The notes under the pieces were generated by a model. It was not told where the DNA came from, did no database searches, and saw only the letters and a program-made list of their open reading frames with translations. Position numbers and translations under genes: made by a program. Positions 3,324-40,766 of a DNA stretch of 64,000 nucleotides are shown here, in pieces. Location of the stretch: assembly GCA_034520945.1 (NCBI GenBank), contig JAXHNB010000010.1:64001-128000 (forward strand). Direction: 5' to 3'. Each line of letters opens with the position of its first letter. Positions within the stretch are counted from its first letter, which is position 1. Source of the DNA: Trueperaceae bacterium. GTDB taxonomy: Bacteria > Deinococcota > Deinococci > Deinococcales > Trueperaceae.

Positions 3324-4649
3324 TCACGGCCGGTACAGGTCGGCCCGCGAGGGGGGCACCTCCACGCGGCCGCGGTCGTCGGGCTTGCCCAGCAGCGTCT
3401 GGTGGACGGACAGCCGTCCGCGCGCGAAATTGTGGGCGCTGCCGCTCATGAACAGGCGCCAGATGCGGGCGCGGTCCTCGCCGACGGTGGCGACCGCCTC
3501 ATCCCAGGACGCCTCCAGGTTGGCGACCCAATGCCGGAGGGTGGCGGCGTAGTGCTCGCGGAGGTCCTCGACGTCGCGCACTTCGAAGCCGACCGCTTCG
3601 GCGGCGCGGACCGTCTCGGTCAGGTTCAGGATCTCGCCGTCCGGGAACACGTAGCGGTCGATGAACGACGGTTGCTCCGGGTCGCGGCGGTCCTCGAAGG
3701 CGTTGGGGCCGCGGCTGATGGCGTGGTTCATCATCAGCCCGCCGGGCGCCAGTCGGTCCCAGGCGGCCTGGAAGTACTCCTGCATGCCCTCACGCCCGAC
3801 GTGCTCCGCCATGCCGATGCTGGCGACGCGGTCGAAGGTGCCCTCCACGTCGCGGTAGTCGCGAATCTCGACCGACGCGCGGTCCGCCACGCCGGCCTGG
3901 TTCAGGCGGCGCGTCCCCTCCTCCACCTGGCGTTCGGCCAGGGTGATGCCGGTGGCGCGGGACCCGTAGTGCTCGGCGGCGTACCCGACCAGGCTGCCCC
4001 AGCCGCAGCCGATGTCCAGCAGGTGATGCTCGGGGGTGAGGCGCAGCTTGCGGCACACCAGGTCCAGCTTGGCCTCCTGCGCTTCGTCGAGGGTTTCCTC
4101 GCCGGTGGGGAAGTAGCCGCAGGAGTACACCATGCGGCGGTCCAGCCACAAGCGGTAGAAGTCGACCGGCAGGTCGTAGTGGTGCCGGATGGCACTGGAG
4201 TCCCGGTTGCGGCTGTGCCGCTGGCCGCTCAGCGTGGCGGCGCCCTCGGGCGGGTGGCGCGACGCCTGGCGGCGCAACGCCACCACGTCGCCCATGGCGC
4301 GCAGGCGCTCCAGCATGCCCCCGCCGGCGGCGGCCTCCAGCAGCCCGCCCATCGCCTCGAACACGACCTCCAGGTCGCCCTCGACGTCGATCTCGCCGCG
4401 CACGAACGCTTCGCCCGCGGACAGGTCGACGGGCGGTTGGAGGGCCCGGCCCAGGGCGTACGGGTCGGACAGAACCAGCGTGGCCGGGGGTGCGCCCTCG
4501 GCGTCGCCGGAGGCGGGGAGGGTGCTGTCGTCCCACAGGCGCACCGCGAACGGTCTCGGTTCCGGCGCGATGTACGACAGCAGGCGCAGGGTGCGTTCCT
4601 TGGCTTCGGAAGCTTCGCGTGAGATGGTCATCGCCTTGCACCTCTCCAT
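3324..4649 (-). CDS. cfa: Cyclopropane-fatty-acyl-phospholipid synthase family methyltransferase
   Basis: AIRHHYDL, MVYSCGYF, LLDIGCGWG, SIGMAEHVG, FIDRYVFPDG, HYAATLRHW. Confidence 0.9.
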   Translation of the reverse strand: MERCKAMTISREASEAKERTLRLLSYIAPEPRPFAVRLWDDSTLPASGDAEGAPPATLVLSDPYALGRALQPPVDLSAGEAFVRGEIDVEGDLEVVFEAMGGLLEAAAGGGMLERLRAMGDVVALRRQASRHPPEGAATLSGQRHSRNRDSSAIRHHYDLPVDFYRLWLDRRMVYSCGYFPTGEETLDEAQEAKLDLVCRKLRLTPEHHLLDIGCGWGSLVGYAAEHYGSRATGITLAERQVEEGTRRLNQAGVADRASVEIRDYRDVEGTFDRVASIGMAEHVGREGMQEYFQAAWDRLAPGGLMMNHAISRGPNAFEDRRDPEQPSFIDRYVFPDGEILNLTETVRAAEAVGFEVRDVEDLREHYAATLRHWVANLEASWDEAVATVGEDRARIWRLFMSGSAHNFARGRLSVHQTLLGKPDDRGRVEVPPSRADLYRP

Positions 4650-4742: not shown

Positions 4743-5414
4743 CTATTCGTGCCGTGACCGCGCCGCACGCAACGCCGCGGCCGCGGCTTCGGCGTCCGCC
4801 GGGCGGTTCACGTTGCGGAGCGCGCCGGCCGGCAGCGCCGAGACCGCGACGGCGGTGACGCGCCCCTCGCGCATCGCCGCGTCCAGCCAGGGCTGGAGCG
4901 ACGTGCGCGTCGGCGTTTCGGGCGTCAGCATGCCGGCCAGCTCGGCGCCGAGTGACCCGTGGTACAGCGCCGCCAGGGGTTCCCAGCGTCCGTCCGCGTC
5001 GCGCGGCACCACCGCGAGCGTCCCGCGGCGGTGGCAGGCCGCCAGCCGGGGCCACCACGCGGGCGGCAGGAGCGGCAGGTCCACCGCCTGCACCGCCACC
5101 CAGTCCCGAGGGTGCCGCGCCAGCACCGTGGCCAACCCGCCCATGGGGCCGAGCCCGGGCCGGTCGTCAGGCAGGGCGGTCACGTGGGCCGGGAGCGACG
5201 GCGCGAGGGCGGCTGCACGCTCAGGGGCACCCAGCACCACGTACACCGTGTCGGCGTCCGCGTGCGAGGCGAGGGCCAGGTCGATCAAGCGCCGGCCCGC
5301 CAGGCGCGCCAGCGCCTTGTCGCGACCGAAGCGGCGGGAACGCCCGCCGGCCAGCACGGCGCCGCACCAGCCGCCCTGCGGTCCCGCTGGGCTCCCCTCC
5401 GGCGTGCGGGTCAT
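4743..5414 (-). CDS. mobA: Molybdenum cofactor guanylyltransferase
   Basis: VLAGGRSRRFGRDKA, GPMGG, AVDLP, EPLAALY, NVNRP; start chosen at ATG 5414. Confidence 0.88.
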   Translation of the reverse strand: MTRTPEGSPAGPQGGWCGAVLAGGRSRRFGRDKALARLAGRRLIDLALASHADADTVYVVLGAPERAAALAPSLPAHVTALPDDRPGLGPMGGLATVLARHPRDWVAVQAVDLPLLPPAWWPRLAACHRRGTLAVVPRDADGRWEPLAALYHGSLGAELAGMLTPETPTRTSLQPWLDAAMREGRVTAVAVSALPAGALRNVNRPADAEAAAAALRAARSRHE

Positions 5415-5515
5415 ATGCCAGTGTACGCCCCACGGGAACGGCCATAGCATGCCCTTGCCGATGGCGGGGCGGGGCGCGCCGTGCGCCTCGTGCCGGAACC
5501 TGGGGCGGGAGGTAG

Positions 5516-6805
5516 ATGATGCGTGTTTCGATGAAGCTCTTGTTGTTGTCCGTGTGGCTGGGGGTCGCGGCCGCGCCGGCGTGGGCGCAGGCACCGACCA
5601 TCACGGTCGCGGCCGAGCTCGGCGGCGTGTTCGACGCCCTGGCGGCGGCCTATCCCGGCGAAGCGCCGCAGCGCAGCGCGGGCGAAGCCGATCTGGTGCT
5701 CGCCCCGGGCCGAGCGTCCTGGGACGAGGTGCGCACCGTGGTGCCCGTACCGGACGTCACGCTGCGCGCTCGGACGGACGACGCGGAGGCGGCGGCGTTC
5801 CTGCGCTTCGCCCGGTCGCCGGACGCGCAGGCGGCGTTGATCGAGGGCGGCTTCCTGCCCGCCGAGGTCAGCGTGAGCGACCAGGCGGGCCGCACGGTGC
5901 GCGTGCCGCAACCGGTGCGGCGCATCGCCAGCCCCTACGGCCTGTCCACCTACCTGGTGTACGCGGTGGGGGCGGGCGACCGGCTGGTGACGGCGGGCTA
6001 CCTCGGCGCGCGGGACCCACAGGGGGCCGCGGCGATGGAGCGCATCGATCCCGACTTCCCCGAGGTGAGCGCCGCCGCGCCCGCCGACACCACCAACGTC
6101 GAGTTCCTGGCGACCCTGGCGCCCGACCTGGTGGCGTCCAGCGCCCGCGCCGAGTGGATCCCCTCCGCCCAGGCGCTCGGCATGCCCGTGCTGGCGTTCG
6201 ACGGCGAGTCGCCCGACGCGCTGGCCGACGCGATGCGGATGACCGGGCGCGCCTTGGGGCCCGACGCGGCCGCGCGGGCCGACGCCTGGGTCCGCTACTA
6301 CCGCGACGTCCTGGCGCGGGTCGCGCGGGCCACCGAGCAGGGGCGCGCCGCGCCGCGCGTGCTGTTCACCGGCACCGATCCCAGCCGCGTCGCCAGCGGG
6401 CAGATGTACCAGACCGACCTGATCCAGGCGGCGGGCGGCGTGTCGGTGACGGCCGGCCTGCGCGGGCATTGGGCCGAGGTGGGCCTCGAGCAGGTGCTGG
6501 CGTGGAACCCCGAGCTGATCCTGGTGCCCCCGTACGGAGGCGCGTCGGTGGCGGCCATCACGAACGACCCGTCGTGGCAGTTGCTTCCCGCCGTGCGCGA
6601 GGGGCGCGTGCTGCGCGTGCCCAAGTTGGTCGCGCCGTGGGACACCCCCGTGCCCGATTCGGTACTGGCGGTGGTGTGGTTGGCCGAGGTGCTGCACCCT
6701 GACGCGACGGACCTGTCGTGCGCCGAGGAGGCGAGGTTCTTCTACCGGCGGTTCTACGACTACGCGCTCACCTCGGACGAGGTCACGTCCCTTTGCCGGC
6801 GCTGA
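5516..6805 (+). CDS. ABC substrate-binding protein, class III (BtuF/FecB/MolA-like) with an extra N-terminal domain
   Basis: Signal peptide (APAWA-Q); DQAGRTVRVPQPVRRIAS, NVEFLATLAPDLV, EQVLAWNPELI, LPAVREGRV. Confidence 0.85.
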   Translation: MMRVSMKLLLLSVWLGVAAAPAWAQAPTITVAAELGGVFDALAAAYPGEAPQRSAGEADLVLAPGRASWDEVRTVVPVPDVTLRARTDDAEAAAFLRFARSPDAQAALIEGGFLPAEVSVSDQAGRTVRVPQPVRRIASPYGLSTYLVYAVGAGDRLVTAGYLGARDPQGAAAMERIDPDFPEVSAAAPADTTNVEFLATLAPDLVASSARAEWIPSAQALGMPVLAFDGESPDALADAMRMTGRALGPDAAARADAWVRYYRDVLARVARATEQGRAAPRVLFTGTDPSRVASGQMYQTDLIQAAGGVSVTAGLRGHWAEVGLEQVLAWNPELILVPPYGGASVAAITNDPSWQLLPAVREGRVLRVPKLVAPWDTPVPDSVLAVVWLAEVLHPDATDLSCAEEARFFYRRFYDYALTSDEVTSLCRR

Positions 6806-7878
6806 GCCAGACCGACGAGGCCGCGACGGTCGCACGTGCCCCGAGGGGATGGCGCCGCCTCCCCTCCCTCGAGGCCTGGAGGTGGGCGGGCACCGCGGCC
6901 GGCCTGGCGTCGCCGCTGCTGCTGGCGCTGATCGCGCTCAGCATGGGCCTGTACCAGGTGAGCCCGTGGGACGTGGCGCGCTCGTTGGCGTCGCTGCTTC
7001 ATCCGGAGGTGGCGGCGGACGTGCCCGAGATCGCCCGCCGCCTGGTGTTGGACGTGCGGCTGCCGCGGGTGCTGGCCGCGCTGCTGATCGGGGCGGGGCT
7101 GGCCGTCACCGGGGTGGTGTTCCAGGGGATCTTCACCAACCCGCTGGTCGACTCCAACCTGCTGGGGGTCACCTCCGGCGCGGGCTTCGGCGCCGCCCTG
7201 GTGCTGCTGCTCGGCGGGTCCGCCTGGGCGGTGCAGGCGTCGGCGTTCGCGTTCGGCCTGCTGGCCGTGTCGCTGGCGTTCCTGGGGTCGCGCCTGTACC
7301 GCAGCGCCCCCAAGATCGTGCTGACGCTGATGGGCATCCTGATCGGGTCGTTCTTCGCATCGCTCACCTCGCTGCTGAAGTACGTCGCCGACCCGTTGGA
7401 CGCGCTGCCCTCGATCACCTTCTGGTTGCTGGGGGGCCTGACGGGCGTGGGGTGGCGGCACGTGCCGCTCCTGGCGGCGCTGACCGCGGCGGGCGCGGTG
7501 TTGTTCCTGCTGGTTCGCTGGCGCCTCAACGTGCTGTCGCTGGGCGACGCCGAAGCCTCCGCGCTCGGCATGCGCCCGGAGCGCATGAAGCTGATCCTGA
7601 TCATCGCGGCCACCCTGGTCACCGCCATCGCCGTCTCCGTCGGCGGGGTGATCGGCTGGGTCGGCCTGGTCGTACCGCACGCGGCCCGCATCGTGGTGGG
7701 GCCCGATCACCGCCGCCTGGTGCCGATGTCCCTGGCATTGGGCGCGTCGTTCCTGCTGATCATCGACACCGTGTCGCGGGCCCTGCTGCCCTCGGAGGTG
7801 CCGCTGGGGGTGCTGACCGGCCTGATCGGCGTCCCGATCCTGGTGCTGCTGTTGCGTCGCACGCGGACGGGGTGGTGA
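6793..7878 (+). CDS. FecCD/BtuC-family ABC permease (start uncertain)
   Basis: VRLPRVLAA, FQGIFTNPLV, FWLLGGL, LSLGDAEASALG, GVIGWVGLVVPH. Confidence 0.9.
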   Translation: MPALSQTDEAATVARAPRGWRRLPSLEAWRWAGTAAGLASPLLLALIALSMGLYQVSPWDVARSLASLLHPEVAADVPEIARRLVLDVRLPRVLAALLIGAGLAVTGVVFQGIFTNPLVDSNLLGVTSGAGFGAALVLLLGGSAWAVQASAFAFGLLAVSLAFLGSRLYRSAPKIVLTLMGILIGSFFASLTSLLKYVADPLDALPSITFWLLGGLTGVGWRHVPLLAALTAAGAVLFLLVRWRLNVLSLGDAEASALGMRPERMKLILIIAATLVTAIAVSVGGVIGWVGLVVPHAARIVVGPDHRRLVPMSLALGASFLLIIDTVSRALLPSEVPLGVLTGLIGVPILVLLLRRTRTGW

Positions 7879-9254
7879 GCGTGGCCAGCCTGGTCGCCAC
7901 CGACGTGACCTTCGGCTACGACCCGGCCGTGCCGGTGGTGCACGACGTCTCGGTGCACGTCGGCCCCGGCGAGGTGCTGTTCCTGCTGGGGCACAACGGC
8001 AGCGGAAAAACCAGCCTGCTGTCCTGCTTGAACGGCGTCCAGCGGCCGACGCGAGGCCGCATCACGCTGGACGGCGTGGACGTGCAGGCGCTGGACGCCG
8101 CGCGGCGGGCACGCCGCATCGGCATGATCCCCCAGGTGCACGTGGCGACCTTCGCGTACAGCGTGCACGACGTGGTCCTCATGGGCCGGGCGCCGCACCT
8201 GTCCACGTTCGCGGGGCCCCGCGCGGAGGATCACGCCATCACCCGGCACGCCCTGGAACGCGTCGGCCTGGCGGACCTCGCGCAGCGGCCCTACACCGAG
8301 CTCAGCGGCGGCGAACGGCAACTGGTGATGGTCGCCCGCGGCCTGGCGCAGCAGTGCGACGTGCTGCTGATGGACGAGCCGGACGCGCATTTGGATCCGC
8401 GCAATCAGTACCGCGTGCTGGAGGTGGTCTCCGACCTGGCGCGCCAGCAGGGGCTTTCGTTCGTGGTGTCGTCGCACGCGCCGAATTCGGCGCTGATGTT
8501 CGCCGACCGCGTGGTGCTGTTGCGTCACGGCCGCGTGCTGGCGTCCGGCGGCGTGGAGGACACCCTCAGTGAGGACCGGTTGGCCCAGGCGTACGGCATG
8601 CCGACCGAGGTCGTCACCAAGGTCGTGAACGGGCGGCGGGTGCCGCGGGCCATCCTGCCGCGGCGTATCGACCGGGTGCCCGACGACTTGGAGGCCCTGG
8701 CGCTGACGCCGGCCGCGCTCGATCGACCCGGATCGGCGTTGGCGCGCCTGTTCGACGCGGCCCAGACGGAGCCGCAACGCCTGATCGTGACGGGGGCGCG
8801 TGGGGCCGGCAAGAGCCGCTGGTGCCAGGCGCTGGTGGCGCGCGTGCGGGCGCGGGGCGCCCGGGTGGCGGGGGTCTCCTCACCCGCCGTCCTGCGCGAG
8901 GGGCACAAGGTCGGCATCGACCTGGTCGACCTCGCGACCGACACCCGCCGGCGCCTGGCGGCGCTGCGGCGTGACGACGAGGGCGGCCAGACCACGGAGC
9001 GCTGGCGCTTCGACGACGCCGTGCTGGCGTGGGGCAACGAGGTGCTCCGGGCCGCCGCCGCGGCACGTCCGGACCTTCTGCTGGTGGACGAGCTCGGCCC
9101 GCTGGAGTTCCACCGTAGCGCCGGGCTGACCGCTGGCATCGACGCGGTCGACGGGGGCGCGGCCGGGGTTGCGTGCGTGGTGGTGCGCCCCTCGTTGCTA
9201 AAGGCGGCGACGGCGCGGTGGCCGGACGCTGTGATCGTCGACGTGGAGGATTGA
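7875..9254 (+). CDS. ABC ATPase (FepC-like) fused to a C-terminal second P-loop NTPase domain (NTPase_1/DUF2478-like)
   Basis: GHNGSGKT, LSGGERQ, LLMDEP; then GARGAGKS and LLLVDELGPLE; GTG start overlaps the permease stop. Confidence 0.85.
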   Translation: MSVASLVATDVTFGYDPAVPVVHDVSVHVGPGEVLFLLGHNGSGKTSLLSCLNGVQRPTRGRITLDGVDVQALDAARRARRIGMIPQVHVATFAYSVHDVVLMGRAPHLSTFAGPRAEDHAITRHALERVGLADLAQRPYTELSGGERQLVMVARGLAQQCDVLLMDEPDAHLDPRNQYRVLEVVSDLARQQGLSFVVSSHAPNSALMFADRVVLLRHGRVLASGGVEDTLSEDRLAQAYGMPTEVVTKVVNGRRVPRAILPRRIDRVPDDLEALALTPAALDRPGSALARLFDAAQTEPQRLIVTGARGAGKSRWCQALVARVRARGARVAGVSSPAVLREGHKVGIDLVDLATDTRRRLAALRRDDEGGQTTERWRFDDAVLAWGNEVLRAAAAARPDLLLVDELGPLEFHRSAGLTAGIDAVDGGAAGVACVVVRPSLLKAATARWPDAVIVDVED

Positions 9255-9351
9255 CCTCGGGCCCCGAAGGGCTCCGCCGACGGTGCACGTCACGAAAGCG
9301 GCACGGGCGACGCCGAAGGCGTGCCCGCGCCGAAGATCGCGGGGGGCGCGG

Positions 9352-10257
9352 CTAGATCAGGGGCTCGAACACCCCGGCCAGCAGCACCGCCGCCCGCAGG
9401 AAGAACACCCCCGCCAGCGCCGAGACCGCGGACAGCGCGAGGAGCGGCTTGTTCTTGCCGCGGACCAACGTGTACGCGCCGATCGCCAACGGGACCAGAA
9501 TGCCGATCACGACGATCCCGCCCCAGGTCATCAGGGCAAACTCGCCTGAGGTCATCGCCTGGGCGCCGAGGCGGGCGCCGGCGCTGCCGATCGAGAGGCC
9601 GATGTACAGGAAGGACAGGACGGCCAGCAGCTTGGCGGCGTCGAGCCCCATGCCCAGTCGGACCCCGAAGGCGGAGACCTGCTCGTCCACCCAGCCGAAG
9701 ACGTACATCAGCTCGAGCACGGCGATGGCGGCGATCGACCCGCTGATCACCCACAGTACCGGGATCAGCGCGCTGTTCCAGAGTGGCACGCCGGCGGCCT
9801 GGGTGATCAGGAAGCCGCTGTAGACGGTGACGGCCACGCCGAGTGCGGCGAATAGGCCCACGAAGACGTTGCTGTCATCCAGCGTTCGCGTCCAGCCCAG
9901 CCAACCGATGCGCTCGGAGAGGAACGACAGCTGGGCGACCACCAGGATCAGCGTCGCCAGCAGGTGCACCGACAGCAGCATGATGCCGATCAGCATCCAG
10001 GAGCTGACGTTGAAGTCGAAGTTCACGACCATCAGCCACAGCGTGCGCGGCAGGTTCCACCAGCGGCCCAGGTGGCTGACCACCAGGAGCAGACCGACGA
10101 CCAGCGATCCGAAGATCACCAGCGCCAACGGTCGGCGGCGTACGAAGTAGTAGGCGACCGATCCCATGCCGGCGATGCCGACGAACCACAGGAACCAGGC
10201 GATCGACCAGCCCCAGTGGGCGATGTCGACCTGCATGTGAAGCTCGGCCGGTGTCAT
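9352..10257 (-). CDS. psrC: NrfD/PsrC-type membrane anchor (quinol-oxidising subunit)
   Basis: WGWSIAWFLWFVGIAG, SHLGRWW, SSWM, VYSGFL...VPLWNS; about 8 TM helices; follows the Fe-S subunit. Confidence 0.85.
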   Translation of the reverse strand: MTPAELHMQVDIAHWGWSIAWFLWFVGIAGMGSVAYYFVRRRPLALVIFGSLVVGLLLVVSHLGRWWNLPRTLWLMVVNFDFNVSSWMLIGIMLLSVHLLATLILVVAQLSFLSERIGWLGWTRTLDDSNVFVGLFAALGVAVTVYSGFLITQAAGVPLWNSALIPVLWVISGSIAAIAVLELMYVFGWVDEQVSAFGVRLGMGLDAAKLLAVLSFLYIGLSIGSAGARLGAQAMTSGEFALMTWGGIVVIGILVPLAIGAYTLVRGKNKPLLALSAVSALAGVFFLRAAVLLAGVFEPLI

Positions 10258-10862
10258 CAGGATCCCTCCACCACGAAGTACTTGGGCTCGGTACCGGCGT
10301 CCTCGAGCAGGCGCCGGCTGCGCTTGGTCCTCAGCGTGATGCTGACGCTGCTGTCCGGGTCGTTCAGGTCGCCGAAGTCGCGGGCCATCGCCGGGCAGGC
10401 CTGCACGCAGGCGGGCGGAAGCCCGTTCGCGATCAGCTCCTGGCAGCCCTCGCCCATGCACTTCTCGGGCAGGTGCGTGTCGGGGTGGAACCAGCGCACG
10501 TTGTACGGGCAGCTGGTCACGCAGTAGCTGCAGCCGGCGCAGCGGGTCGGATCGAGTTGGACCAGGCCGTCATTGTCGTAATAGACGGCGCCGAACGGGC
10601 AGTTGGTCACGCACGGCGCGTTCTCGCAGTGCTGGCACTGCACCAGCAGCACCTCGGGGCGGCCCTGGGCTGTGACGCTGTCGATGCGGCGGATGTTGGA
10701 CGCGAGCGAGTTCCAGCCCTTCTCCTCGCGCGCCATCATGTCGGGGGCGTTGGTCGAGGTGCAGGCCATCACGCAGGCGCCGCAGGCGATGCACCTGCTG
10801 GCGTCCCATACGTGCGCGAGCCGGCGTTCGGGCGTTTCTCCTCGCTTCAGGCGGGTGCTCAT
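10257..10862 (-). CDS. psrB: 4x[4Fe-4S] electron-transfer subunit (PsrB/NrfC/DmsB family)
   Basis: CIACGACVMAC, CQHCENAPCVTNCP, CAGCSYCVTSCP, KCMGEGC...PACVQACP. Confidence 0.9.
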   Translation of the reverse strand: MSTRLKRGETPERRLAHVWDASRCIACGACVMACTSTNAPDMMAREEKGWNSLASNIRRIDSVTAQGRPEVLLVQCQHCENAPCVTNCPFGAVYYDNDGLVQLDPTRCAGCSYCVTSCPYNVRWFHPDTHLPEKCMGEGCQELIANGLPPACVQACPAMARDFGDLNDPDSSVSITLRTKRSRRLLEDAGTEPKYFVVEGS

Positions 10863-10880
10863 TTCAGGAATCCTCCTCGC

Positions 10881-13427
10881 TCACGCCCGGCGGATGCGCA
10901 CGGAGGCGTTGTTGGCGTTGGCGCCGGTGACCGGGTCGACCGTCGCCCTGGAGAACCAGTGCGGGTTGATGCCCTGGGCCCTTCGGGCGAAGCGTTCGTC
11001 CTCGGCGACGCCGCGGCCGCGGTGACCGCCGGAGTAGGAGTAGACGAACAGCGCGCCGGGGTGCACACGCGGCGTGACGTTGACGGTGGTGGTGGCCTTC
11101 CAACCGGTGTCGAGGCCCTCGATCTCGATCTCGTCGTCGCTGGCGAGGCCGAGCCGGGCGGCGTCGTCGGGGTGGATCCAGACGCGGTTGTCCAGCAGGT
11201 ACTGGGTCGGGAAGGCGAGGCTGGAGACGCCGGACGAACCGATCGGGCTCTTGCCGTTGACCAGGAAGAACTCGTCATCGCCGCGCGGCATGGTGTAGGC
11301 GGGCGGGTCGAAGTAGGTCGCGAAACCGCGCTCGCGGTAGCCGCGCAGCACCGGCCGGAACGCGTAGATCTCGAGCCGGCCGCTGGGCGAGGCGAAGGGA
11401 CGGTTGTACGGCGTGCCGCCGTAGCGCTGCTCCTGGAAGGTGACGAAGCCCTTCTCGCGGAGCTCGGCGAGCAGCTCGTCGGGATCGCGGTTCCAGTTCT
11501 CCGCCAGCTTCTCGATCTGGAGTTGCTCGACGTGGTGGAACCAGTCGCGCTTCCAGGTGTCCACATCGGCCATGCGCTCGTCGTGACCCATCATCGCGGC
11601 CTTCTGCGGGTAGGCGGCGCGCAGCATCTCCAGGGCGATCCAGGCGTCCGGGCGGACGTCGGCGCCCTCGGGCGGGTCGGTGACCTTCTGCTGCAGCGCC
11701 GCGGTCGCGGTCATGGTCCAGCCGACGCCCGTGAGGTGGTCGCGCTCCAGGAACATCTCGGCCGGCAGCACGTAGTCGGACCAGTCGTTCAGCTCCTGGT
11801 CGACGATATCGACATTGACGATCAGGTCCAGCTTCCCGAGCGCCTCCTCGATGCGGGCGACGTTGGGGTCGCGGTGGAAGATCGTCGCGCCGAACAGCAC
11901 CAGCGCCGACACCTTGTACGGGTCCTCGTCGAGCACGCCGCCGAGCACCGCGTCGAAGGTGGCGTTCGTCTCGGGGTAGACCGCCTTGTCGATGCGTGGG
12001 GCGTCGGACTTGAGCTCGAAGCTGTCGCCGGTGATCAGCGAGACCATGCCGCCGGAGTTGCCGATCACGCCGGGGACCTTGGAGCTGGGGCGGACGCACA
12101 TGCCGCCGAGGCGGTCGAGGTTTCCGAGCAGACCGTTGACGGTCATGAGCGCCATGATCACGTCGGTGTCGTTGCCGTTTCGCGTGTTGTACCAGGTGTC
12201 CTCGACGACGCCCTGCATGGTGTGCAGCTCGCGGGCGATCCGCGCGATCGTCGCGGCGGGGACGCCGGTGATCTCTGCGGCCCGCTCGGGCGCGTAGTCG
12301 TCCAGGTGCTCCAGCAGCAGGTTCCATGCCGTGGTGACGGTCGCCTCGCTCCCGTCGGCAAGCGTGAGCGTGCCGGCGTAGACCAGCTCGGGCTCGAGGT
12401 CCTCGTCCTGGTGGAAGGCGATCTGGCCGTCGGTGCCCATCAGCGCGAACAGGCCCTCGTCGCCGTCCTCCTGCAGGTCGGCCTGGGTGAGCGGCTGGCC
12501 GTCGTCCTTGATGAGGAGAGGAAGGTTGGTGTAGCGGGTGACGAAGTCCTCGTCGAAGCGTGCCTCGTCGATCAGCACGTGGGCGACGCCCAGCATGAAC
12601 GCCGCGTCGGTGCCGGGCGTGCACGACAGCCACTCGGCGTCGGCGTAGGCCACGTCGGGGTGGGCCGGGTTGAGGAAGACGACCTTGGCGCCGTGCTCGC
12701 GGGCCTTCGCCAGGCGGTGGACCGCGCCGATCGGGGCGTTGAGGCTGCGGCCCGGGAACACCACGTAACGCAGGTTGTCGTAGTCGGGGTCGATCACCGC
12801 GTGGTGGTCGAAGCCGCTGCCCATCATCCAGCGGCGGCCGACGACGCCGGCGGTGTTGCAGGTGCTGGCCTGCGTGATCATGTTGGGCGAGCCCAGGCCC
12901 CAGGCCAGCAGGCTGGCCTCGGTCTTGTAGTCGTGGGTGCTGACGACGACCGAGCGGGCGCCGTCGCGTTCGACGATCTCGCGGAGCTTCGCGCCGATCT
13001 CTTCGAAGGCCTGCTCCCAGGTGATCTCCTCATAGCGGCCCTCGCCGCGCTCGCCGACGCGCTTGCGGGGCTTGCGCAGCCGCAGCGGGCTGTTCCACGT
13101 GTAGGGCGCGGTGGCGCCGCGCCCGCACATGCCGCGTTGCGGGTGGTCGGGGTGTTGGTTGGGGAGGATCAGCATGGCATCCTCGCCCGGCGGCATCCCC
13201 TTCTTCACCAGTCCGGTCAGGCCGCAGCCGGCGCCGCACTGGTGGCAGATGGTGTGACGCACCAGGTAGCCGTTGCGTTCGAGCCCCTCGACATCGATGC
13301 CGTCGGGCCCGAAGAACGGCTGCGCGTCGACCCAGCCCTTCTGCGCCAGCAATGCGGCGGTGGCCACCGACGCCGAGCCGGCGAGGAACCGGCGGCGGCT
13401 GACGGGCCGTTCGTGGAAGCTTCGCAT
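10881..13427 (-). CDS. psrA: Mo/W-bisPGD oxidoreductase catalytic subunit, polysulfide/thiosulfate reductase (PsrA/PhsA-like), Tat-exported
   Basis: Tat motif SRRRFL; FS0 motif CHQCGAGC...GMCGRG; likely Cys metal ligand in QASTCNTAG; SDYVLPAEMFLER; C-terminal WIHPDDAARLGL; exact substrate inferred. Confidence 0.75.
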   Translation of the reverse strand: MRSFHERPVSRRRFLAGSASVATAALLAQKGWVDAQPFFGPDGIDVEGLERNGYLVRHTICHQCGAGCGLTGLVKKGMPPGEDAMLILPNQHPDHPQRGMCGRGATAPYTWNSPLRLRKPRKRVGERGEGRYEEITWEQAFEEIGAKLREIVERDGARSVVVSTHDYKTEASLLAWGLGSPNMITQASTCNTAGVVGRRWMMGSGFDHHAVIDPDYDNLRYVVFPGRSLNAPIGAVHRLAKAREHGAKVVFLNPAHPDVAYADAEWLSCTPGTDAAFMLGVAHVLIDEARFDEDFVTRYTNLPLLIKDDGQPLTQADLQEDGDEGLFALMGTDGQIAFHQDEDLEPELVYAGTLTLADGSEATVTTAWNLLLEHLDDYAPERAAEITGVPAATIARIARELHTMQGVVEDTWYNTRNGNDTDVIMALMTVNGLLGNLDRLGGMCVRPSSKVPGVIGNSGGMVSLITGDSFELKSDAPRIDKAVYPETNATFDAVLGGVLDEDPYKVSALVLFGATIFHRDPNVARIEEALGKLDLIVNVDIVDQELNDWSDYVLPAEMFLERDHLTGVGWTMTATAALQQKVTDPPEGADVRPDAWIALEMLRAAYPQKAAMMGHDERMADVDTWKRDWFHHVEQLQIEKLAENWNRDPDELLAELREKGFVTFQEQRYGGTPYNRPFASPSGRLEIYAFRPVLRGYRERGFATYFDPPAYTMPRGDDEFFLVNGKSPIGSSGVSSLAFPTQYLLDNRVWIHPDDAARLGLASDDEIEIEGLDTGWKATTTVNVTPRVHPGALFVYSYSGGHRGRGVAEDERFARRAQGINPHWFSRATVDPVTGANANNASVRIRRA

Positions 13428-13452
13428 CGACACCCAACCTCCCATCTCACGG

Positions 13453-13511
13453 TCGTGATTCATTTCACGATCTCGCCATTGACGCTAGGCTGTGTAGAGG
13501 TCTCCCGGCAA
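13453..13511 (-). promoter_or_regulatory. psr promoter (TTGCCG-N18-TAGCGT) with downstream palindromic operator TCGTGA-N6-TCACGA (Rex- or CRP/FNR-like)
   Basis: Palindrome at 13453-13470; -10 at 13482-13487 and -35 at 13506-13511 on the minus strand. Confidence 0.6.
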
Positions 13512-13651
13512 CGGAAGAATGTCCCCAGGCCGAGGCCAACGCTCCGCCGGCACGCGTGCCAGCGCTGAGGGCCGCTTTCGGTCGTCGAGATCGGGCAGGA
13601 TCACTGCAACGGGCACTGGGCCCACGGGCCTCGAAGCAGAAGGGAGCACGC

Positions 13652-14089
13652 ATGAAGCGAAACCTGATCGTCCTGCTCGTCCCCCTGTTGGTGACCGGCG
13701 CCGCAGGCCAGGTCGAGTCCACCGCCGCGTCGGAACGGATGGCCGAGGTCATCGAACGGGCCAGCCGGTCCGGCTGGTTGCAGCTTGGCGTCGAAGAAGC
13801 GGCCGCGTACATCATCCAAGTGGAGCCGTTCCTCCTGGATGTACGCACGGTCGACGAGTTCGACGACGGCTACATCGAGGGCGCCGTGAACGTGCCGGTC
13901 ACCGAACTGGACGCCAACCTGCATCGACTGCCCACCGACCTGGACACGCCGATCCTGGTGTACTGCGCGAAAGGCACGCGCAGCTTTTGGGCGCAGGCGT
14001 ACCTGACGGCCCTCGGCTACGACAACGTGCAGAACCTGCGGGAGGGGTTCCGCGCTTGGCGCGCGGCGGGTTTTCCGAGCGCACCCTGA
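13652..14089 (+). CDS. Secreted single-domain rhodanese (Sud-like sulfurtransferase)
   Basis: Signal peptide MKRNLIVLLVPLLVTGAAG; LLDVRT..EF..GYIEGAVNVP; active-site loop VYCAKGTRS; RBS AGGGAG. Confidence 0.85.
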   Translation: MKRNLIVLLVPLLVTGAAGQVESTAASERMAEVIERASRSGWLQLGVEEAAAYIIQVEPFLLDVRTVDEFDDGYIEGAVNVPVTELDANLHRLPTDLDTPILVYCAKGTRSFWAQAYLTALGYDNVQNLREGFRAWRAAGFPSAP

Positions 14090-14166
14090 CGGCGCCCTCC
14101 GAACCACATGATCGGGACCCCTTCCGCCTCGGACAGGGGCCCTCGATTCGCGCGGTCAGCGGGGGC

Positions 14167-15513
14167 TCAGTCGAAGCCCGGCACGGCCTGGGGCACTGCG
14201 ATGGGACGGCTGCACGCCGGCTCCTGCTCGAACAGGGCACGCTCGGCCTCCGGCAGGGTGGCGCGGGCCAGGTCGCGAATGCCGTTCACGCCGATGAAGA
14301 ACTCCCGCATCATCACCACCAGCAGGTAACGGCCGGTCTCGGTCAGTTCGAGCGCGTCGCCGTCGTCGCGTGCGAAGGCGCCGGCGGCCTTCAGGAAGGC
14401 GTACTCCAGCCACAACGCCCGTTCCACGGGCGCCCCATGGTCCCGGGCGAAGGCGCGCTTGTCCAACCGCAGGCCGAACAGGTCGATCATCATGCGGTAG
14501 CGGCGCCGGTCGCGGCGGCTCAGCGGCATGCGGGCGTCCACGCTGAGGCGGCCCTCCTCGATGGCCTCCTGGTAGCTGCGGAGCGAGAAGGTGTTGGCGT
14601 AGATCTCGCCGCCCAGGTAGCTGAACGAGCCGCTGCCCACCCCCACGTACTCCGCGTGATCCACGATGTACTCGTCGATCAAGGACGGGGCCTCGCTCGA
14701 GGAGGCCACGCGCGAGAAGGCCCAGGCCGAGGCGGGGGCGTAGCGTCCCGCCAGCGTCCGCGAGATCAGGCGGTACTGTCGCGCCTCGCGCCGGTCGTCC
14801 ACGCGGCCCAGGGCGCGCTCCAGCGGCCGCGCCACCGACGGGGACACCATCAACGGGTAGTAGGTGATCTGGTCCGGGTCGGCGTCGACCAGGAGTTCCA
14901 TGTCGCGCTGCAGGATCTCGTCCGTCAGCGAGGGCAGGTTGAAGATCATGTCGACGTTGAGGGTCGGCAAGCGCCCCCGCGCGGCGTCGAGGCCCGCCAG
15001 GATCTGCGCGGCCGAGCCGTACTTGTCGTGCCGCTTCATCTGCCGCAACAGGTCGTCGTTCAGGCTCTGCACGCCGACCGACAGGCGCTGCACGCGACCT
15101 TCCAGCGGCCCCAGCACCGCGTCGTTCAGGTGGTTCGGGTTCGTCTCCGTCGATACCTCGCCGACGTCGAACAGGTCACGGGCCAGATCGATGGTGGCGA
15201 CCAGCTCGCCCACGTCGACCGTGGGCGTGCCGCCGCCGATGTACATCGACGAGAAGCGGTACCCGCGGTCCGCCAGGATCCGCATTTCCTCCCGGAGCGA
15301 CCGGAAGTACCGGTGGGCGGCATCCTCGCGGTAGGGAAATCGATTGAACGAGCAATACGGGCACAACAACTCGCAGAACGGCACGTGCGCGTACAGCAGC
15401 AGCTCCGCGCCTTGCGCCGGTCGCGGCAGGGCGCCGGGGCGGTGCGGTTCCAGGGTGAGCTGCTGGGATCGCAAACCGCGGAGCTTGCGGGTGAGGAGCC
15501 ACCCCGCGATCAT
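14167..15513 (-). CDS. menK: HemN-like class C radical SAM enzyme, probable menaquinone methyltransferase MenK/MqnK
   Basis: LYAHVPFCELLCPYCSFNRF, GGGTPT, ETNPNHL, RLSVGVQS, QITYYPLM and GRYLLVVMMREFF, which I recognise as MenK-type rather than HemN/HemW; adjacent to psr. Confidence 0.72.
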   Translation of the reverse strand: MIAGWLLTRKLRGLRSQQLTLEPHRPGALPRPAQGAELLLYAHVPFCELLCPYCSFNRFPYREDAAHRYFRSLREEMRILADRGYRFSSMYIGGGTPTVDVGELVATIDLARDLFDVGEVSTETNPNHLNDAVLGPLEGRVQRLSVGVQSLNDDLLRQMKRHDKYGSAAQILAGLDAARGRLPTLNVDMIFNLPSLTDEILQRDMELLVDADPDQITYYPLMVSPSVARPLERALGRVDDRREARQYRLISRTLAGRYAPASAWAFSRVASSSEAPSLIDEYIVDHAEYVGVGSGSFSYLGGEIYANTFSLRSYQEAIEEGRLSVDARMPLSRRDRRRYRMMIDLFGLRLDKRAFARDHGAPVERALWLEYAFLKAAGAFARDDGDALELTETGRYLLVVMMREFFIGVNGIRDLARATLPEAERALFEQEPACSRPIAVPQAVPGFD

Positions 15514-15736: not shown

Positions 15737-16738
15737 ATGAAGGTCGCCGTGTTCAGCACCAAGACGTACGACCAGCGCCACCTGGCGCACGCCAACCAGC
15801 ACCACGGGCACGAGCTGACGTTCTTCGAGCCGCGCCTGCACCTCGATACCGCCGTGCTGGCCGCAGGATTTCCCGTGGTCTGCGCGTTCGTGAACGACCG
15901 GCTCGATGCCGAGGTATTGCAGCGCCTGGCGGAGGGGGGCACCAAACTGATCGCCCTGCGGTCGGCAGGGTTCAACCACGTCGACCTCCACGCGGCCGAA
16001 CGGCTCGGCATGACCATCGCCCGCGTGCCGGCCTACTCGCCGCACGCCGTGGCCGAGCATGCCTTGGCCCTCGTCCTGGCGCTGAACCGCAAGATCTACC
16101 GCGCCTACAACCGGGTGCGCGAAGGCAACTTCGCGTTGGAGGGGCTGATCGGCTTCGACATGCACGGCAAGACGGTCGGGGTGGTGGGGACCGGCAAGAT
16201 CGGCGCCACCTTCGCGCGCATCGTGCACGGGATGGGGTGCCAGGTGCTGGCGCTGGACCCGTACCCGAACCCGGACCTCGACGCCATCGCCGAGTACGTG
16301 TCGCAGGACGACCTCTTCGCCCGCGCGGACGTCGTGTCGCTGCATTGCCCCCTGACGCCCGAGACGCACCACCTGATCGACGCGGCCGCGATTCGGCAGA
16401 TGAAGAGGGGCGTGACGCTGATCAACACCAGCCGGGGCCAACTGGTGGACACGCGCGCGGTGATCGACGGCCTGAAGCGTGGACGCATCGGGCGGTTGGG
16501 GCTCGACGTGTACGAGGAAGAGGGCGACCTGTTCTTCGAGGACCTGTCCAACCAGGTGATCCGCGACGACGTGTTCTCGCGGTTGTTGACCTTTCCCAAC
16601 GTGCTGATCACCGGCCATCAGGGGTTCTTCACCGAGGAGGCGTTGCACGCCATCGCCGACACGACCCTGGCCAACGTGAGCGCCTTCGCGTCGGGCGAGG
16701 GCACGTTGTACCGCGTGGACGCCGAGAAGCGCGCGTAG
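15737..16738 (+). CDS. ldhA: D-lactate dehydrogenase (2-hydroxyacid dehydrogenase)
   Basis: [63 protein letters not shown]. Confidence 0.92.
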
Positions 16739-16742
16739 CGAC

Positions 16743-18284
16743 GTGCCGGCCTGGGTCGACGCCTCGTTGGCGGCATCGCCGATCGTCGTCATCCTGGTGG
16801 CGATGCTGGGACTGGGGTGGTCCGCGGCGCGGGCCGGCGCCGCCGGCCTGGCCGTCGCGCTGGCGGTGGCGTGGTGGGGGTTCGGCTACGGCACGCGCAC
16901 GCTGCCCGACCTCGGTCCCGTCATGGCGAGCGGCGGGGCGCTGCTCGAGGCAATGTTCATCGCCGCCACCATCTTGTGGATCATCTTTCCGGCGCTGTGC
17001 ATTCACGAACTCCAGTCCCGAACCGGCGCGCTGGAGGTGCTGCGGCGGGCGATGGGCCGCCTCTCGCCGGACCCGCGCATCGGGGCGCTGCTGGTGGCGT
17101 GGTTCTTCGTGCTGTTCGTGGAGGGGGCGGCGGGGTTCGGGACCTCCGTCGCGCTGGCCGCGCCGTTCCTGGTGGCGGCGGGCTTCGGCCGGGTCGAGGC
17201 GGTCACCATCGCGCTGGTCGGCCACGCCGTCGGCGTCTCGTTCGGCGCGGTCGGCACGCCCATCCTGCCCCAGATGGCGGTCACGCCGTTCACGGGGCGT
17301 GAACTGGCGTCCGCGACGGCGGCGTACCATGCGCTGGCCGGGTGGGTGATGCCGCTGCTGGCGATGCTGCTGGTGACGCGCGCGCTCCCCTCCGCTCGCG
17401 GCGGCCCGGCGATCTGGGGCTGGACGCTGCTGGCGGCGGCGGCGTTCCTGGTGCCGTTCTACGCGATCGCCCGCTTCGTGGGGCCCGAACTGCCGACCCT
17501 GGCGGGATCGCTGGTTGGCGGGGCGGTGTTCGTGGCCGCGTTGACGCTCGTGCGGCGGCTCAGGGGCACGCACGACGAGGAGGCGGCGGAAGCGCAGCCG
17601 TCCGGCGGGCTGCTGCGGGCCGGTGCGCCGTACCTGGCGCTCATCGGCCTGGTGTTGATCACCCGCTTGCTGCCCGGCGTCCGCGACGCACTGTCCGAGG
17701 CCACCGTCGCGTGGGGGCTGTCCGGGGTGTTCTCCGGCGCGTTCGCGCCGCTCTACCACCCCGGCACCATGCTGATGGCGGGCTTCCTGGCGGGGGCCGC
17801 GTTGCAACGCGCCGCCACGGGCGAGGTGACCGGCGCGGCCTGGCGTGCGCTCCGTCAGTTGGCGCCGGTGACGCTGGCGCTGGTCGCGATGTTGGCGATT
17901 TCGCGCGTGATGGTGTACGCGGGCATGATCGACGCGTTGGCCGTCGCCGCGGCCGCCGCGGCGGGTGGGGCGTGGCCGCTGTTCGCGCCGTTCGTGGGGG
18001 TGCTGGGCACGTTCGTGACGGGCTCCGCCACCGCGTCCAACATCCTGTTCACCGATTTTCAGTTCGCGACCGCCGAGCGCCTCGGCCGCCCGGCGCTGCC
18101 GCTGCTGGGGGCGCAGGGGTTCGGCGCCGCGGTCGGCAACATCGTGTGCCCGCACAACATCATCGCGGCGGGCGCGACGGTGAACCTGGCCGGGCGCGAG
18201 GGCGAGGTGTTGCGGCGCACCTTGCCGGTCGCGCTGCTCTACGCCGCGATGGGCGGGGTGCTGGCGTGGTGGGTGTTCGGGTGA
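16743..18284 (+). CDS. lctP: Lactate permease (LctP family)
   Basis: FVEGAAGFGT, VSFGAVGTP, GTFVTGSATASNILF, GNIVCPHNI. Confidence 0.88.
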   Translation: MPAWVDASLAASPIVVILVAMLGLGWSAARAGAAGLAVALAVAWWGFGYGTRTLPDLGPVMASGGALLEAMFIAATILWIIFPALCIHELQSRTGALEVLRRAMGRLSPDPRIGALLVAWFFVLFVEGAAGFGTSVALAAPFLVAAGFGRVEAVTIALVGHAVGVSFGAVGTPILPQMAVTPFTGRELASATAAYHALAGWVMPLLAMLLVTRALPSARGGPAIWGWTLLAAAAFLVPFYAIARFVGPELPTLAGSLVGGAVFVAALTLVRRLRGTHDEEAAEAQPSGGLLRAGAPYLALIGLVLITRLLPGVRDALSEATVAWGLSGVFSGAFAPLYHPGTMLMAGFLAGAALQRAATGEVTGAAWRALRQLAPVTLALVAMLAISRVMVYAGMIDALAVAAAAAAGGAWPLFAPFVGVLGTFVTGSATASNILFTDFQFATAERLGRPALPLLGAQGFGAAVGNIVCPHNIIAAGATVNLAGREGEVLRRTLPVALLYAAMGGVLAWWVFG

Positions 18285-34261: not shown

Positions 34262-35755
34262 TCAGTCCGCTGGTGCCGCCTCCGTGCTGGCCGTACCGGC
34301 GGCGGCCAGCGCCCGCTCGACGCGGCGGCCGTAGTCCTCGTCCGCGCGGTAGAGGTGCGCGACCCACCGTTCTTGGACCTCGGTGCGGGCCTGTGACAGA
34401 CCTTCGGCGGTGCGGGCGGCGACGCGGTCGCGGTGGGCGTCGTCGAACATGCGGTACAGGTCGCCGGCCTGCGTGTAGTCGTCCTGGTCCTGGTAGGCGT
34501 CCCAGCGGTCCACCACCACCTGGCCCAGGTCCCAGGCGGGGTCGCGCTCGTCGGGCGCGTCCTTCGGTGCGCCGGACACGCTGTTGGGGTGGTAGTTGGG
34601 GTGCGCGTGCGGGTTGGGCTGCGCCATCAAGCCGTCGCGGGTGTAGGTGTTCACCTCGGTGCGGGGGCGGTTCACGTCCAGCTTGTCGTGGTTCACGCCC
34701 AAGCGGTAGGCCTGCGTGTCGGCGTAGCTCATCAGGCGTGCCTGCAGCATCTTGTCGGGGCTGGCCCCGATGCCGGGCACCAGCGCGCTGGGCTTGAAGG
34801 CGGCCTGCTCGACCTCGGCGAAGTAGTCGACCGGGTTGCGGTTCAGGGTCAGGCGCCCTACCTCGATCAGCGGGAACTCGGCGTGCGGCCACACCTTGGT
34901 GAGATCGAACGGGTTCCAGCGGAAGGCGTCGGCCTGCTCCTGGGTCATGACCTGGATCTTGAGCGTCCAGGAGGGATGATCGCCGCGTTCGATCGCGCCG
35001 TACAGGTCGCGTTGGTGCGACTCGCGGTCGCCGCCTACGATGGTGGCGGCCTCGTCGTCCATCAGGTTGCGGACGCCCTGGTCGGTCTTCCAGTGGAACT
35101 TGACCCAGATGCGCTCACCGGCGTCGTTGATCAGCGAGTAGGTGTGGCTGCCGTAGCCGTTCTGGTGCCGGTAGCTGGCCGGCAGGCCGCGGTCGCTCAT
35201 CAGGATGGTGACCTGGTGCAGCGACTCGGGCGACATCGACCAGAAGTCCCACTGCATGTCCATGTCCCGCACGTGCGTGCGGGGGTGGCGCTTCTGCGAG
35301 TGGATGAACGACGCGAACTTGAGGGGGTCGCGCGCGAAGAACACCGGCGTGTTGTTGCCGACCAGGTCCCAGTTTCCCTCTTCGGTGTAGAGCCGTACGC
35401 TGAAGCCGCGCACGTCCCGCTCGGCGTCGGCCGCGCCGCGCTCGCCGGCCACGGTGGAGAAGCGCACGAAGGCGTCGGTGGTCTTCCCCACCTCGCGCAG
35501 GCAGGCCGCCTTGGTGTAGCGACTGACGTCGTTCGTCACCGTGAACGTGCCGTAGGCGCCGGAGCCCTTGGCGTGGACGACGCGTTCTGGGATGCGTTCG
35601 CGGTTGAAGTGCTGCATCTGCTCGAGCAGTTGGACGTCCTGCATCAGCAGTGGGCCGCGTGGGCCGGCGGTCTGGCTGTTCTTCTGGTCGGCGATGGGGG
35701 CGCCGGTCTTGGTGGTGAGGGTGGGGCGATCGTCGCGGGCGTCGTCGTTGGACAT
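34262..35755 (-). CDS. katA: Monofunctional heme catalase (small subunit)
   Basis: FNRERIPERVVHAKG, VGNNTPVFF, DKMLQARLMSYADTQ. Confidence 0.96.
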   Translation of the reverse strand: MSNDDARDDRPTLTTKTGAPIADQKNSQTAGPRGPLLMQDVQLLEQMQHFNRERIPERVVHAKGSGAYGTFTVTNDVSRYTKAACLREVGKTTDAFVRFSTVAGERGAADAERDVRGFSVRLYTEEGNWDLVGNNTPVFFARDPLKFASFIHSQKRHPRTHVRDMDMQWDFWSMSPESLHQVTILMSDRGLPASYRHQNGYGSHTYSLINDAGERIWVKFHWKTDQGVRNLMDDEAATIVGGDRESHQRDLYGAIERGDHPSWTLKIQVMTQEQADAFRWNPFDLTKVWPHAEFPLIEVGRLTLNRNPVDYFAEVEQAAFKPSALVPGIGASPDKMLQARLMSYADTQAYRLGVNHDKLDVNRPRTEVNTYTRDGLMAQPNPHAHPNYHPNSVSGAPKDAPDERDPAWDLGQVVVDRWDAYQDQDDYTQAGDLYRMFDDAHRDRVAARTAEGLSQARTEVQERWVAHLYRADEDYGRRVERALAAAGTASTEAAPAD

Positions 35756-40427: not shown

Positions 40428-40766
40428 ATGGAATGGGCCCGCACGTGCGTTGGTACCCGTAGAGAGGTAGAGGGCCGCGGCGAGACGTGCCACGACGCCG
40501 GCGTTTGCCCCCTGAGCGCGCTGGCGTGCGGCGCCGGGGGCACGGTCGTGCAGCTACCCGAGAACCCGCGCGTCGCCCGCCGCCTGTCGGCGCTGGGCAT
40601 TCGACCCAGCATCGCGTGTCACGTGCTGGGGCGTACGCCCCTCGGGGGGCCGATCCACCTTCGGGCCGGCTCCGTCCACCTCATGCTCCGTACCTGCGAA
40701 GCGGCCGGCGTGCTGGTCGTGCCGGACGGGACGCCCGACCCAGACGATGTCCTGCCCGCGCTGTAG
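40428..40766 (+). CDS. feoA: Ferrous iron transport protein A (start uncertain)
   Basis: RRLSALGIRP, RTPLGGPI, LMLR..EA; directly upstream of feoB. Confidence 0.8.
   Translation: MEWARTCVGTRREVEGRGETCHDAGVCPLSALACGAGGTVVQLPENPRVARRLSALGIRPSIACHVLGRTPLGGPIHLRAGSVHLMLRTCEAAGVLVVPDGTPDPDDVLPAL

Follow-up and report, generated by a model that had tools for sequence, protein, structure and literature searches.

Sulfur respiration that joins a polysulfide reductase (Psr), a rhodanese and methylmenaquinone is a textbook combination; the potentials of thiosulfate and polysulfide are low, and hence a methylated quinone would help. The Trueperaceae are known as aerobic heterotrophs. The locus described here occupies positions 4743-15513 of a 64,000-nucleotide stretch (the window, G000:C10:64001-128000, where G000 is the genome holding it; GenBank assembly GCA_034520945.1). 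The initial annotation took it for a self-contained polysulfide-respiration island and knew of no such arrangement in this lineage. That novelty does not hold, since the Thermus PsrABC is in the PDB, phsA/psrA have been reported in Trueperaceae metagenome-assembled genomes (MAGs) (PMC6704655) and Oceanithermus desulfurans reduces sulfur (PMC3111992); a description of this very cluster, or of the bacterial clade of its reductase, was not found in the literature searched, which lay outside subscription journals. The nine genes first annotated are all intact and open at the positions given, and the host is, judged by the labels on close homologues of the window proteins, a member of the Trueperaceae, in keeping with the Deinococcota host first proposed. 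We read the locus as one for anaerobic respiration on a Trueperaceae psr scaffold, with a divergent, Pyrobaculum-type reductase of the Psr/Phs family that most likely reduces thiosulfate, and we give this reading an even chance of being right. The reductase is encoded by three genes.

psrA, 10881-13427, minus strand: 848-residue protein with a twin-arginine motif, an N-terminal Fe-S motif and a Cys aligned to the Thermus Mo ligand
psrB, 10257-10862, minus strand: Fer4_11 protein with 16 Cys in four groups, a four-[4Fe-4S] subunit without a twin-arginine translocation (Tat) signal
psrC, 9352-10257, minus strand: PF03916 protein (E 2e-23), an NrfD-type quinol-oxidising membrane anchor of 301 residues

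These motifs identify a triad of a predicted Tat-exported molybdenum/tungsten bis-pyranopterin guanine dinucleotide (Mo/W-bisPGD) subunit with a Cys ligand, a four-cluster B subunit and an NrfD anchor. PsrA has the marks of the PsrA/PhsA/SrrA lineage (Cys ligand, N-terminal [4Fe-4S] motif, Tat signal, gene order A-B-C) as defined in PMC10100899, PMC7331816 and PMC2500031, the last of which gives the gene order. Its best PDB match is the Thermus PsrA (PDB 2VPW/X/Y/Z, E 4.5e-66), and it is 31.5% identical to a near-identical Thermus orthologue, 32.3% to PhsA and 43% to AAL64489.1 of Pyrobaculum aerophilum. The model of enterobacterial PhsABC (NF012032) scored 279 bits against a cut-off of 694, which the Thermus orthologue also fails to reach (504 bits). 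PsrC, for which no PDB sequence match was found, fits the cofactor-free NrfD-type anchor of about eight helices that marks Psr, and not the b-heme five-helix PhsC of enterobacterial PhsABC; it gave seven hydropathy peaks, the same as a Thermus-type PsrC, while PhsC has five.

A homologue search with PsrA showed a sharp break, in which 70 of the 120 listed proteins scored at least 569 bits and the next one 205. The divergent clade amounts to 70 clusters at 90% identity among the matches listed, with about five full-length representatives at 50%, and its named members come from Trueperaceae, Wenzhouxiangella, Rubrimonas, Elioraea, Sutterella, Thermoproteus, Nitrososphaeria and P. aerophilum (AAL64489.1). 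We built two trees, one with FastTree (166 rows) and a quick one with IQ-TREE (56 rows hand-picked from the first set plus four Ttr-like proteins; LG+G4), both of which left out Wolinella PsrA, SrrA and SreA. In both trees, the clade uniting the window PsrA with AAL64489.1 stands on a long stem with support of 100 (100 also in the Shimodaira-Hasegawa-like approximate likelihood ratio test, SH-aLRT), and it nests with Thermus-type PsrA and PhsA (SH-aLRT 98 for a 36-row group; 85 in FastTree), with Arr and Ttr apart. The catalytic subunit belongs, as had been predicted, to the Psr/Phs lineage in its broad sense and is separate from Arr, Ttr and Dms. Its naming as a Thermus-type polysulfide reductase is not supported, as the approximately unbiased (AU) test rejects the grouping of the divergent clade with Thermus-type PsrA (p 8.6e-6); grouping with Arr is likewise rejected (p 6.1e-6). 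An ArrA/ArxA, TtrA or DmsA identity was ruled out by the trees and AU tests.

The triad could still be a genuine polysulfide reductase, having taken the place of the Thermus-type enzyme and acting together with a rhodanese shuttle and methylmenaquinone as in Wolinella, a proposal that we find doubtful. The active site and the anchor lend it some support, because the Mo-ligand Cys is kept (Cys202, aligned to Thermus Cys173, is Cys in 68/68 clade rows), the equivalents of Thermus Arg81 and His145 are found in 66/68 and 64/68 rows, and PsrC is of the NrfD type; the rejected grouping with Thermus-type PsrA and a different substrate loop count against it. The column of Thermus Arg332, a residue that presumably acts in a conserved substrate loop, holds Trp in 67/68 clade rows versus Arg in 14/14 Thermus-type rows, and the clade has an invariant Asn and an insertion of 65-68 residues, the insertion being absent from Thermus-type PsrA and PhsA.

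The distribution of the two enzymes bears on the same question. Among relatives (127 genomes of the Trueperaceae family, which as kin are not independent and are mostly fragmented MAGs), the divergent triad is found in 12, as well as in 1 of 236 other Deinococcota genomes searched, and Thermus-type psrA in 30; neither a Thermus-type psrA nor its triad was found in G000. These psrA counts are from a homologue survey, as a phylum scan with the PhsA model (two candidates per genome) missed the G000 gene. Thermus-type PsrA also occurs in 11 of the 12 relatives with the divergent enzyme, counting a fragment at a contig end in G058; the one relative without it, G062, is 77% complete. This argues that the divergent enzyme has a different job. 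The rhodanese directly precedes the divergent psrA in G057, G059 and G066, which favours a polysulfide enzyme, but in G057 and G066, where both triads stand in tandem, it ends the Thermus-type operon that lies upstream. Similarly, psr and rhodanese genes are co-transcribed in sulfur-respiring haloarchaea (PMC5437934) and the rhodanese and mqnK of G000 are intact though no Thermus-type psr is left; against this, no rhodanese, mqnK or mobA was seen near the divergent triad in eight distant metagenome loci of the clade, several of them short.

The case for thiosulfate comes from the archaeal relative. Haja and colleagues are said to have found in 2020 that Tsr of P. aerophilum, encoded by PAE2859-2861, reduces thiosulfate and not polysulfide. 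PMC9431562 cites a thiosulfate reductase of P. aerophilum that is bound to the membrane, and PMC8105010 presents PAE2859-2861 as a molybdopterin operon. For this PsrA, we consider the polysulfide label less likely than thiosulfate. It is unlikely, in our estimate, that the triad reduces some other acceptor (selenite, tetrathionate, arsenate or Fe(III)) with sulfur-type neighbours inherited from a lost operon. In its favour, genes with rhodanese domains lie in the operon of SrrA, another member of this lineage (PMC12481199), tetrathionate respiration in Shewanella involves a homologue of Psr (PMC12949373), and PAE2859-2861 is partly up-regulated on Fe(III) (PMC8105010). However, the extra srrD, srrE and srrF-type genes of Srr selenite reductases are missing from the cluster, grouping with Arr is rejected as said, and G000 already has both an ArrA-like cluster (B, TorD-like, NrfD, A; G000:C9:158797-163894; 1112 bits to NF041714, under the cut-off, and grouping with ArrA) and a Ttr-like Mo enzyme with an Fe-S/membrane subunit and a TorD-like chaperone (G000:C10:228122-233225, on the contig of the window).

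On the other side of psrA, two genes converge.

Rhodanese, 13652-14089, plus strand: PF00581 (E 8e-19), single domain with a signal-peptide-like N-terminus and one Cys (C105)
mqnK/menK-type gene, 14167-15513, minus strand: class C radical S-adenosylmethionine (SAM) protein of the menaquinone methyltransferase (MKMT) type, NF006385 at 484 bits against a cut-off of 355

The 145-residue rhodanese resembles Sud in being a single-domain protein with a catalytic Cys (Cys105) and predicted export, its signal peptide being judged by eye and hydropathy. The "Sud-like" label is nevertheless not supported, because Sud is absent among its 23 PDB matches at E<=0.001, and the protein is probably at most a Sud analogue. 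In relatives, the rhodanese usually closes the Thermus-type psr operon: of the 30 relatives with Thermus-type psrA, 24 have an orthologue that follows this gene within about 2 kb and G033 has one as a contig-end fragment, while three others are split across contigs and two have no rhodanese match.

The radical SAM protein has five of the six MKMT signature motifs (Table 2 of PMC10320005, after Wilkens 2021) exactly and the sixth with L for F, an L shared by 21 of 22 orthologue loci. These motifs and the NF006385 match rule out a HemN/HemW identity and show a predicted MKMT-type methyltransferase, which may form methylmenaquinone. Since G000 has futalosine pathway genes (two matches) and no MenB over the cut-off, MqnK is the fitting name; both MenK and MqnK are treated in PMC10114718, and genomic detection of MKMTs has been called unreliable (bioRxiv 10.1101/2025.09.17.676790). 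In a survey of the phylum, MKMT-type genes were found in 22/127 genomes of the Trueperaceae (family f1) and 12/23 of f4, and not in f2, f3, f5 and f6; the Trueperaceae genes lead one to expect methylmenaquinone in a class for which mainly chains of eight units are on record. Four congeners share the convergent rhodanese-mqnK pair of the window. Arsenic-resistance-like genes (Acr3-like and ArsR-like by eye) are inserted between rhodanese and mqnK at L118 (G064) and L122 (G063). A second mqnK copy in G000 (G000:C6:459040-459852) is without the N-terminal 170 residues and adjoins a short transposase-like stretch and a tRNA-gene-like sequence; G113 also has a second copy, which is split.

At the other end of the cluster are genes for cofactor supply.

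mobA, 4743-5414, minus strand: molybdenum cofactor guanylyltransferase, PF12804 (E 4e-32), with MobA models below cut-off
Substrate-binding protein (SBP), 5516-6805, plus strand: class III MolA/BtuF fold, PF01497 and a weak PF13531
Permease, 6802-7878, plus strand: type II, MolB-like, FecCD (E 3e-82), start uncertain, the frame being open from 6718
ATP-binding cassette (ABC) ATPase, 7875-9254, plus strand: ABC_tran and a C-terminal NTPase_1, with two Walker A motifs

A type II permease with a class III SBP related to HI1471/HI1472 places the importer with MolABC. The best PDB match of the permease is HI1471 (E 2e-66; next 1.6e-48), which is molB (PMC4031551). An AlphaFold2 (AF2) model of the SBP built with an alignment has a predicted local distance difference test score (pLDDT) of 94.6 (a single-sequence fold only 35.5), and in it residues 117-425 superpose on MolA 3PSH with Z 30, and residues 24-114 form an N-terminal ModA-like single lobe (ModA 7T4Z, Z 11.0 over 91 residues). 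The SBP is only 22% identical to MolA, two uncharacterised SBPs rank above MolA, and it aligns poorly to MolA at the N-terminal binding region, where we take the MolA binding site to lie. Fusion of a ModA-like lobe (window 5516-5860) to a MolA-type body marks an SBP family of Trueperaceae and Chloroflexota (P0406-P0524), and the weak PF13531 match is found in 17/86 SBP homologues. The NTPase_1 part of the ATPase is a second P-loop domain that is conserved in relatives, where the ATPase is matched over its full length. Mo/W import by this MolABC-like importer is likely, since mobA adjoins it in 7/11 loci, divergently oriented, and no ModA over the cut-off was found in G000. The importer is present in 15/127 relatives.

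The genes form four transcription units, namely mobA (minus), SBP-permease-ATPase (plus), psrA-psrB-psrC (minus) and the rhodanese (plus) converging on the radical SAM gene (minus), with refined starts at 13427 for psrA (with a ribosome-binding site; 848 residues), 13652 for the rhodanese and 5414 for mobA. Such alternating orientation would suit a historical mosaic that is no functional unit, with mobA and the importer serving all Mo enzymes, MqnK the whole quinone pool and the rhodanese an orphan. In line with this, mobA is the only match (a single tblastn match) in a genome with several Mo enzymes, mqnK stands away from psr genes in 6 of the 14 relatives examined and the importer is in 0/10 congeners. 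However, the linkage recurs in several genera, with mobA beside the importer in the 7/11 loci above, the importer upstream of the psr operon in six genomes and mqnK within 12 kb of the rhodanese in 8/14, so that we consider a mere mosaic quite improbable.

The co-location of rhodanese, mqnK, mobA and importer with psr genes, which the initial annotation proposed to check in relatives, was indeed found there, and this recurrence rules out chance co-location. A mobA-ABC-torD-psrABC-rhodanese-(mqnK) cluster recurs across the family, and a locus search of genome contigs gave two related loci. The order mobA / importer-torD-psrABC (Thermus type)-rhodanese is found in G019, G033, G039 and G063; in G058 it is hydrogenase, mobA, importer, moaB, divergent triad, torD and Thermus-type psrA, and the hydrogenase adjoins mobA in both G058 and G064. 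The parts are known ones, and the package as a whole is a trait of the family. In the simplest history, the Thermus-type torD-psrABC was lost in G000 and the divergent triad was left, inverted, in its place. The cluster is not self-contained as first thought, since moeA/moaB, the futalosine genes and the hydrogenase lie elsewhere in the genome and no TorD chaperone is encoded in it.

The host genome (3.47 Mb, 97% complete, 5% contaminated) comes from a salt pan. Contigs of sequencing runs X1, X2 and X3 bridge the psrA-rhodanese-mqnK and mobA-SBP junctions, and those of X1 and X3 the stretch from the ATPase to the end of psrC; X1 and X2 are one sample, possibly the source, and X3 is a sediment metagenome of another study, so an assembly error is an unlikely origin of the arrangement, although no single listed piece spans the whole stretch. 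The G+C content at third codon positions (GC3) is 0.86-0.97 in cluster genes versus 0.94-0.96 in the flanks, and boundary repeats were looked for around the cluster and not found. A mobile island is thereby ruled out, and the cluster is chromosomal with no sign of recent acquisition or transfer. A cyclopropane fatty acid synthase (window 3324-4649) lies to the left of the cluster, and a D-lactate dehydrogenase-like gene and a lactate permease (window 15737-18284) to the right; in the loci of relatives examined, none of these goes with the cluster.

The ctaA and catalase first noted are present in the window (catalase at 34262-35755), which also holds feoB at 40747-42900. G000 has two heme-copper oxidases and a group 1-type uptake [NiFe] hydrogenase operon (small and large subunits, cytochrome b, protease and hyp genes; G000:C9:54298-64000), and a second NiFe-family match lies at G000:C2:127319-128455. 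From its gene content, the organism looks facultative and not strictly aerobic.

Two elements precede psrA.

Palindrome TCGTGA-N6-TCACGA, 13453-13470, no strand: just upstream of psrA, candidate operator
Second leader element beginning GGGAC, 13510-13526, minus strand: apparently conserved, by eye in aligned leaders

The palindrome recurs in the psrA leaders of 10 relatives (exact in eight, one mismatch in one, wider spacing in one), and G000 has two exact sites versus 0.32 expected. It differs at 3/14 positions from what we take to be the Rex operator; a rex gene is present in G000, and a Rex-family and a CRP/FNR-family regulator are equally possible. No sigma-70 consensus promoter was found in the cluster, two terminator-like sites are at chance level and no Rfam match was found in the window.

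The best reading of these parts is a methylmenaquinol-driven, probably hydrogen-fuelled respiration of the thiosulfate type. Under anoxia, the palindrome upstream of psrA would release or activate transcription, and the importer and MobA would supply Mo/W-bisPGD. MqnK would methylate futalosine-derived menaquinone to a lower-potential quinone, which the group 1 uptake hydrogenase (G000:C9:54298-58115) may reduce. PsrC would then oxidise the quinol and pass electrons via PsrB to the Mo centre, where the S-S bond of thiosulfate would be cleaved in the periplasm. As a legacy of the lost Thermus-type operon, the rhodanese may act as a sulfane-sulfur shuttle or be a mere remnant.

Several observations weigh against this reading. 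That AAL64489.1 (Q8ZUB8) is PAE2859 is our assumption from the order of accessions, and 43% identity to it leaves the substrate unfixed. The PAE2859-2861 operon is also linked to growth on Fe(III) (PMC8105010), and by the membrane-anchor rule of PMC12949373 an NrfD anchor means Psr and not Phs, the same source holding PsrA, PhsA and SrrA to be indistinguishable on trees. Oceanithermus profundus has no growth on sulfur or thiosulfate and only MK-8/MK-9 on record (PMC3111992), and a protein of C. jejuni that carries the full set of six MKMT motifs is described as a heme chaperone (PMC10320005). Moreover, in the loci scanned, the palindrome was found ahead of neither the hydrogenase nor Thermus-type psr operons.

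Genomes that carry a Thermus-type Psr and a member of the divergent clade, each with its own substrate loop, are a natural pair for finding specificity residues, which matters because sequence does not at present separate Psr, Phs and Srr. Proteins of Sutterella wadsworthensis (P0062/P0121, P0069/P0135) belong to the divergent clade (a 1008-member cluster), and in the gut-type loci (L162-L167, L182) the enzyme is a stand-alone A-B-C triad; the clade could thus be a source of gut sulfide that has gone unrecognised. Separately, an E. coli plasmid (NZ_CP020060.1, L091:1676-7269) carries phsABC between two IS26 copies, and phsA is the top match on 31 of 40 plasmid rows listed. More broadly, and tentatively, the divergent enzyme may be a small unnamed subfamily of thiosulfate-type reductases in hyperthermophilic archaea, saline Trueperaceae and gut Sutterella, and several Trueperaceae genera may make methylmenaquinone and respire sulfur with hydrogen as fuel, using two reductases that differ in specificity, a ModA-lobe Mo/W importer and a conserved operator switch.

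Compared with known systems, the reductase is most like AAL64489.1 of P. aerophilum, with which it shares the clade (SH-aLRT 100), 43% identity, the insertion and the substrate loop; an archaeal locus of the clade (L163) has the same A-B-C order with B and C 55% and 41% identical, whereas the host here is bacterial and rhodanese, mqnK, mobA and importer were not seen near L163. Thermus thermophilus PsrABC, from the same phylum, has the same Tat-exported Cys-ligand A, four-cluster B and NrfD C, but the window PsrA is in a separate clade with the Arg332 loop replaced and no torD, and no mqnK-like gene was found in the 68 genomes of the T. thermophilus family. The srrABCDEF operon of Bacillus selenitireducens (PMC12481199) likewise combines a Psr-lineage A-B-C triad with rhodanese-domain neighbours, while the cluster here has a single 145-residue rhodanese, no chaperone gene and no 38/45 kDa SrrE/SrrF-type proteins. 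The importer resembles Haemophilus influenzae MolBC-A in its type II architecture, with a permease closest to MolB and an SBP fold like MolA, and differs in the added ModA-like lobe on the SBP and NTPase domain on the ATPase. With Wolinella succinogenes, G000 shares a reductase, an exported rhodanese, an MKMT-type gene, futalosine genes and an uptake hydrogenase, but its rhodanese has no PDB match to Sud and its host has two heme-copper oxidases.

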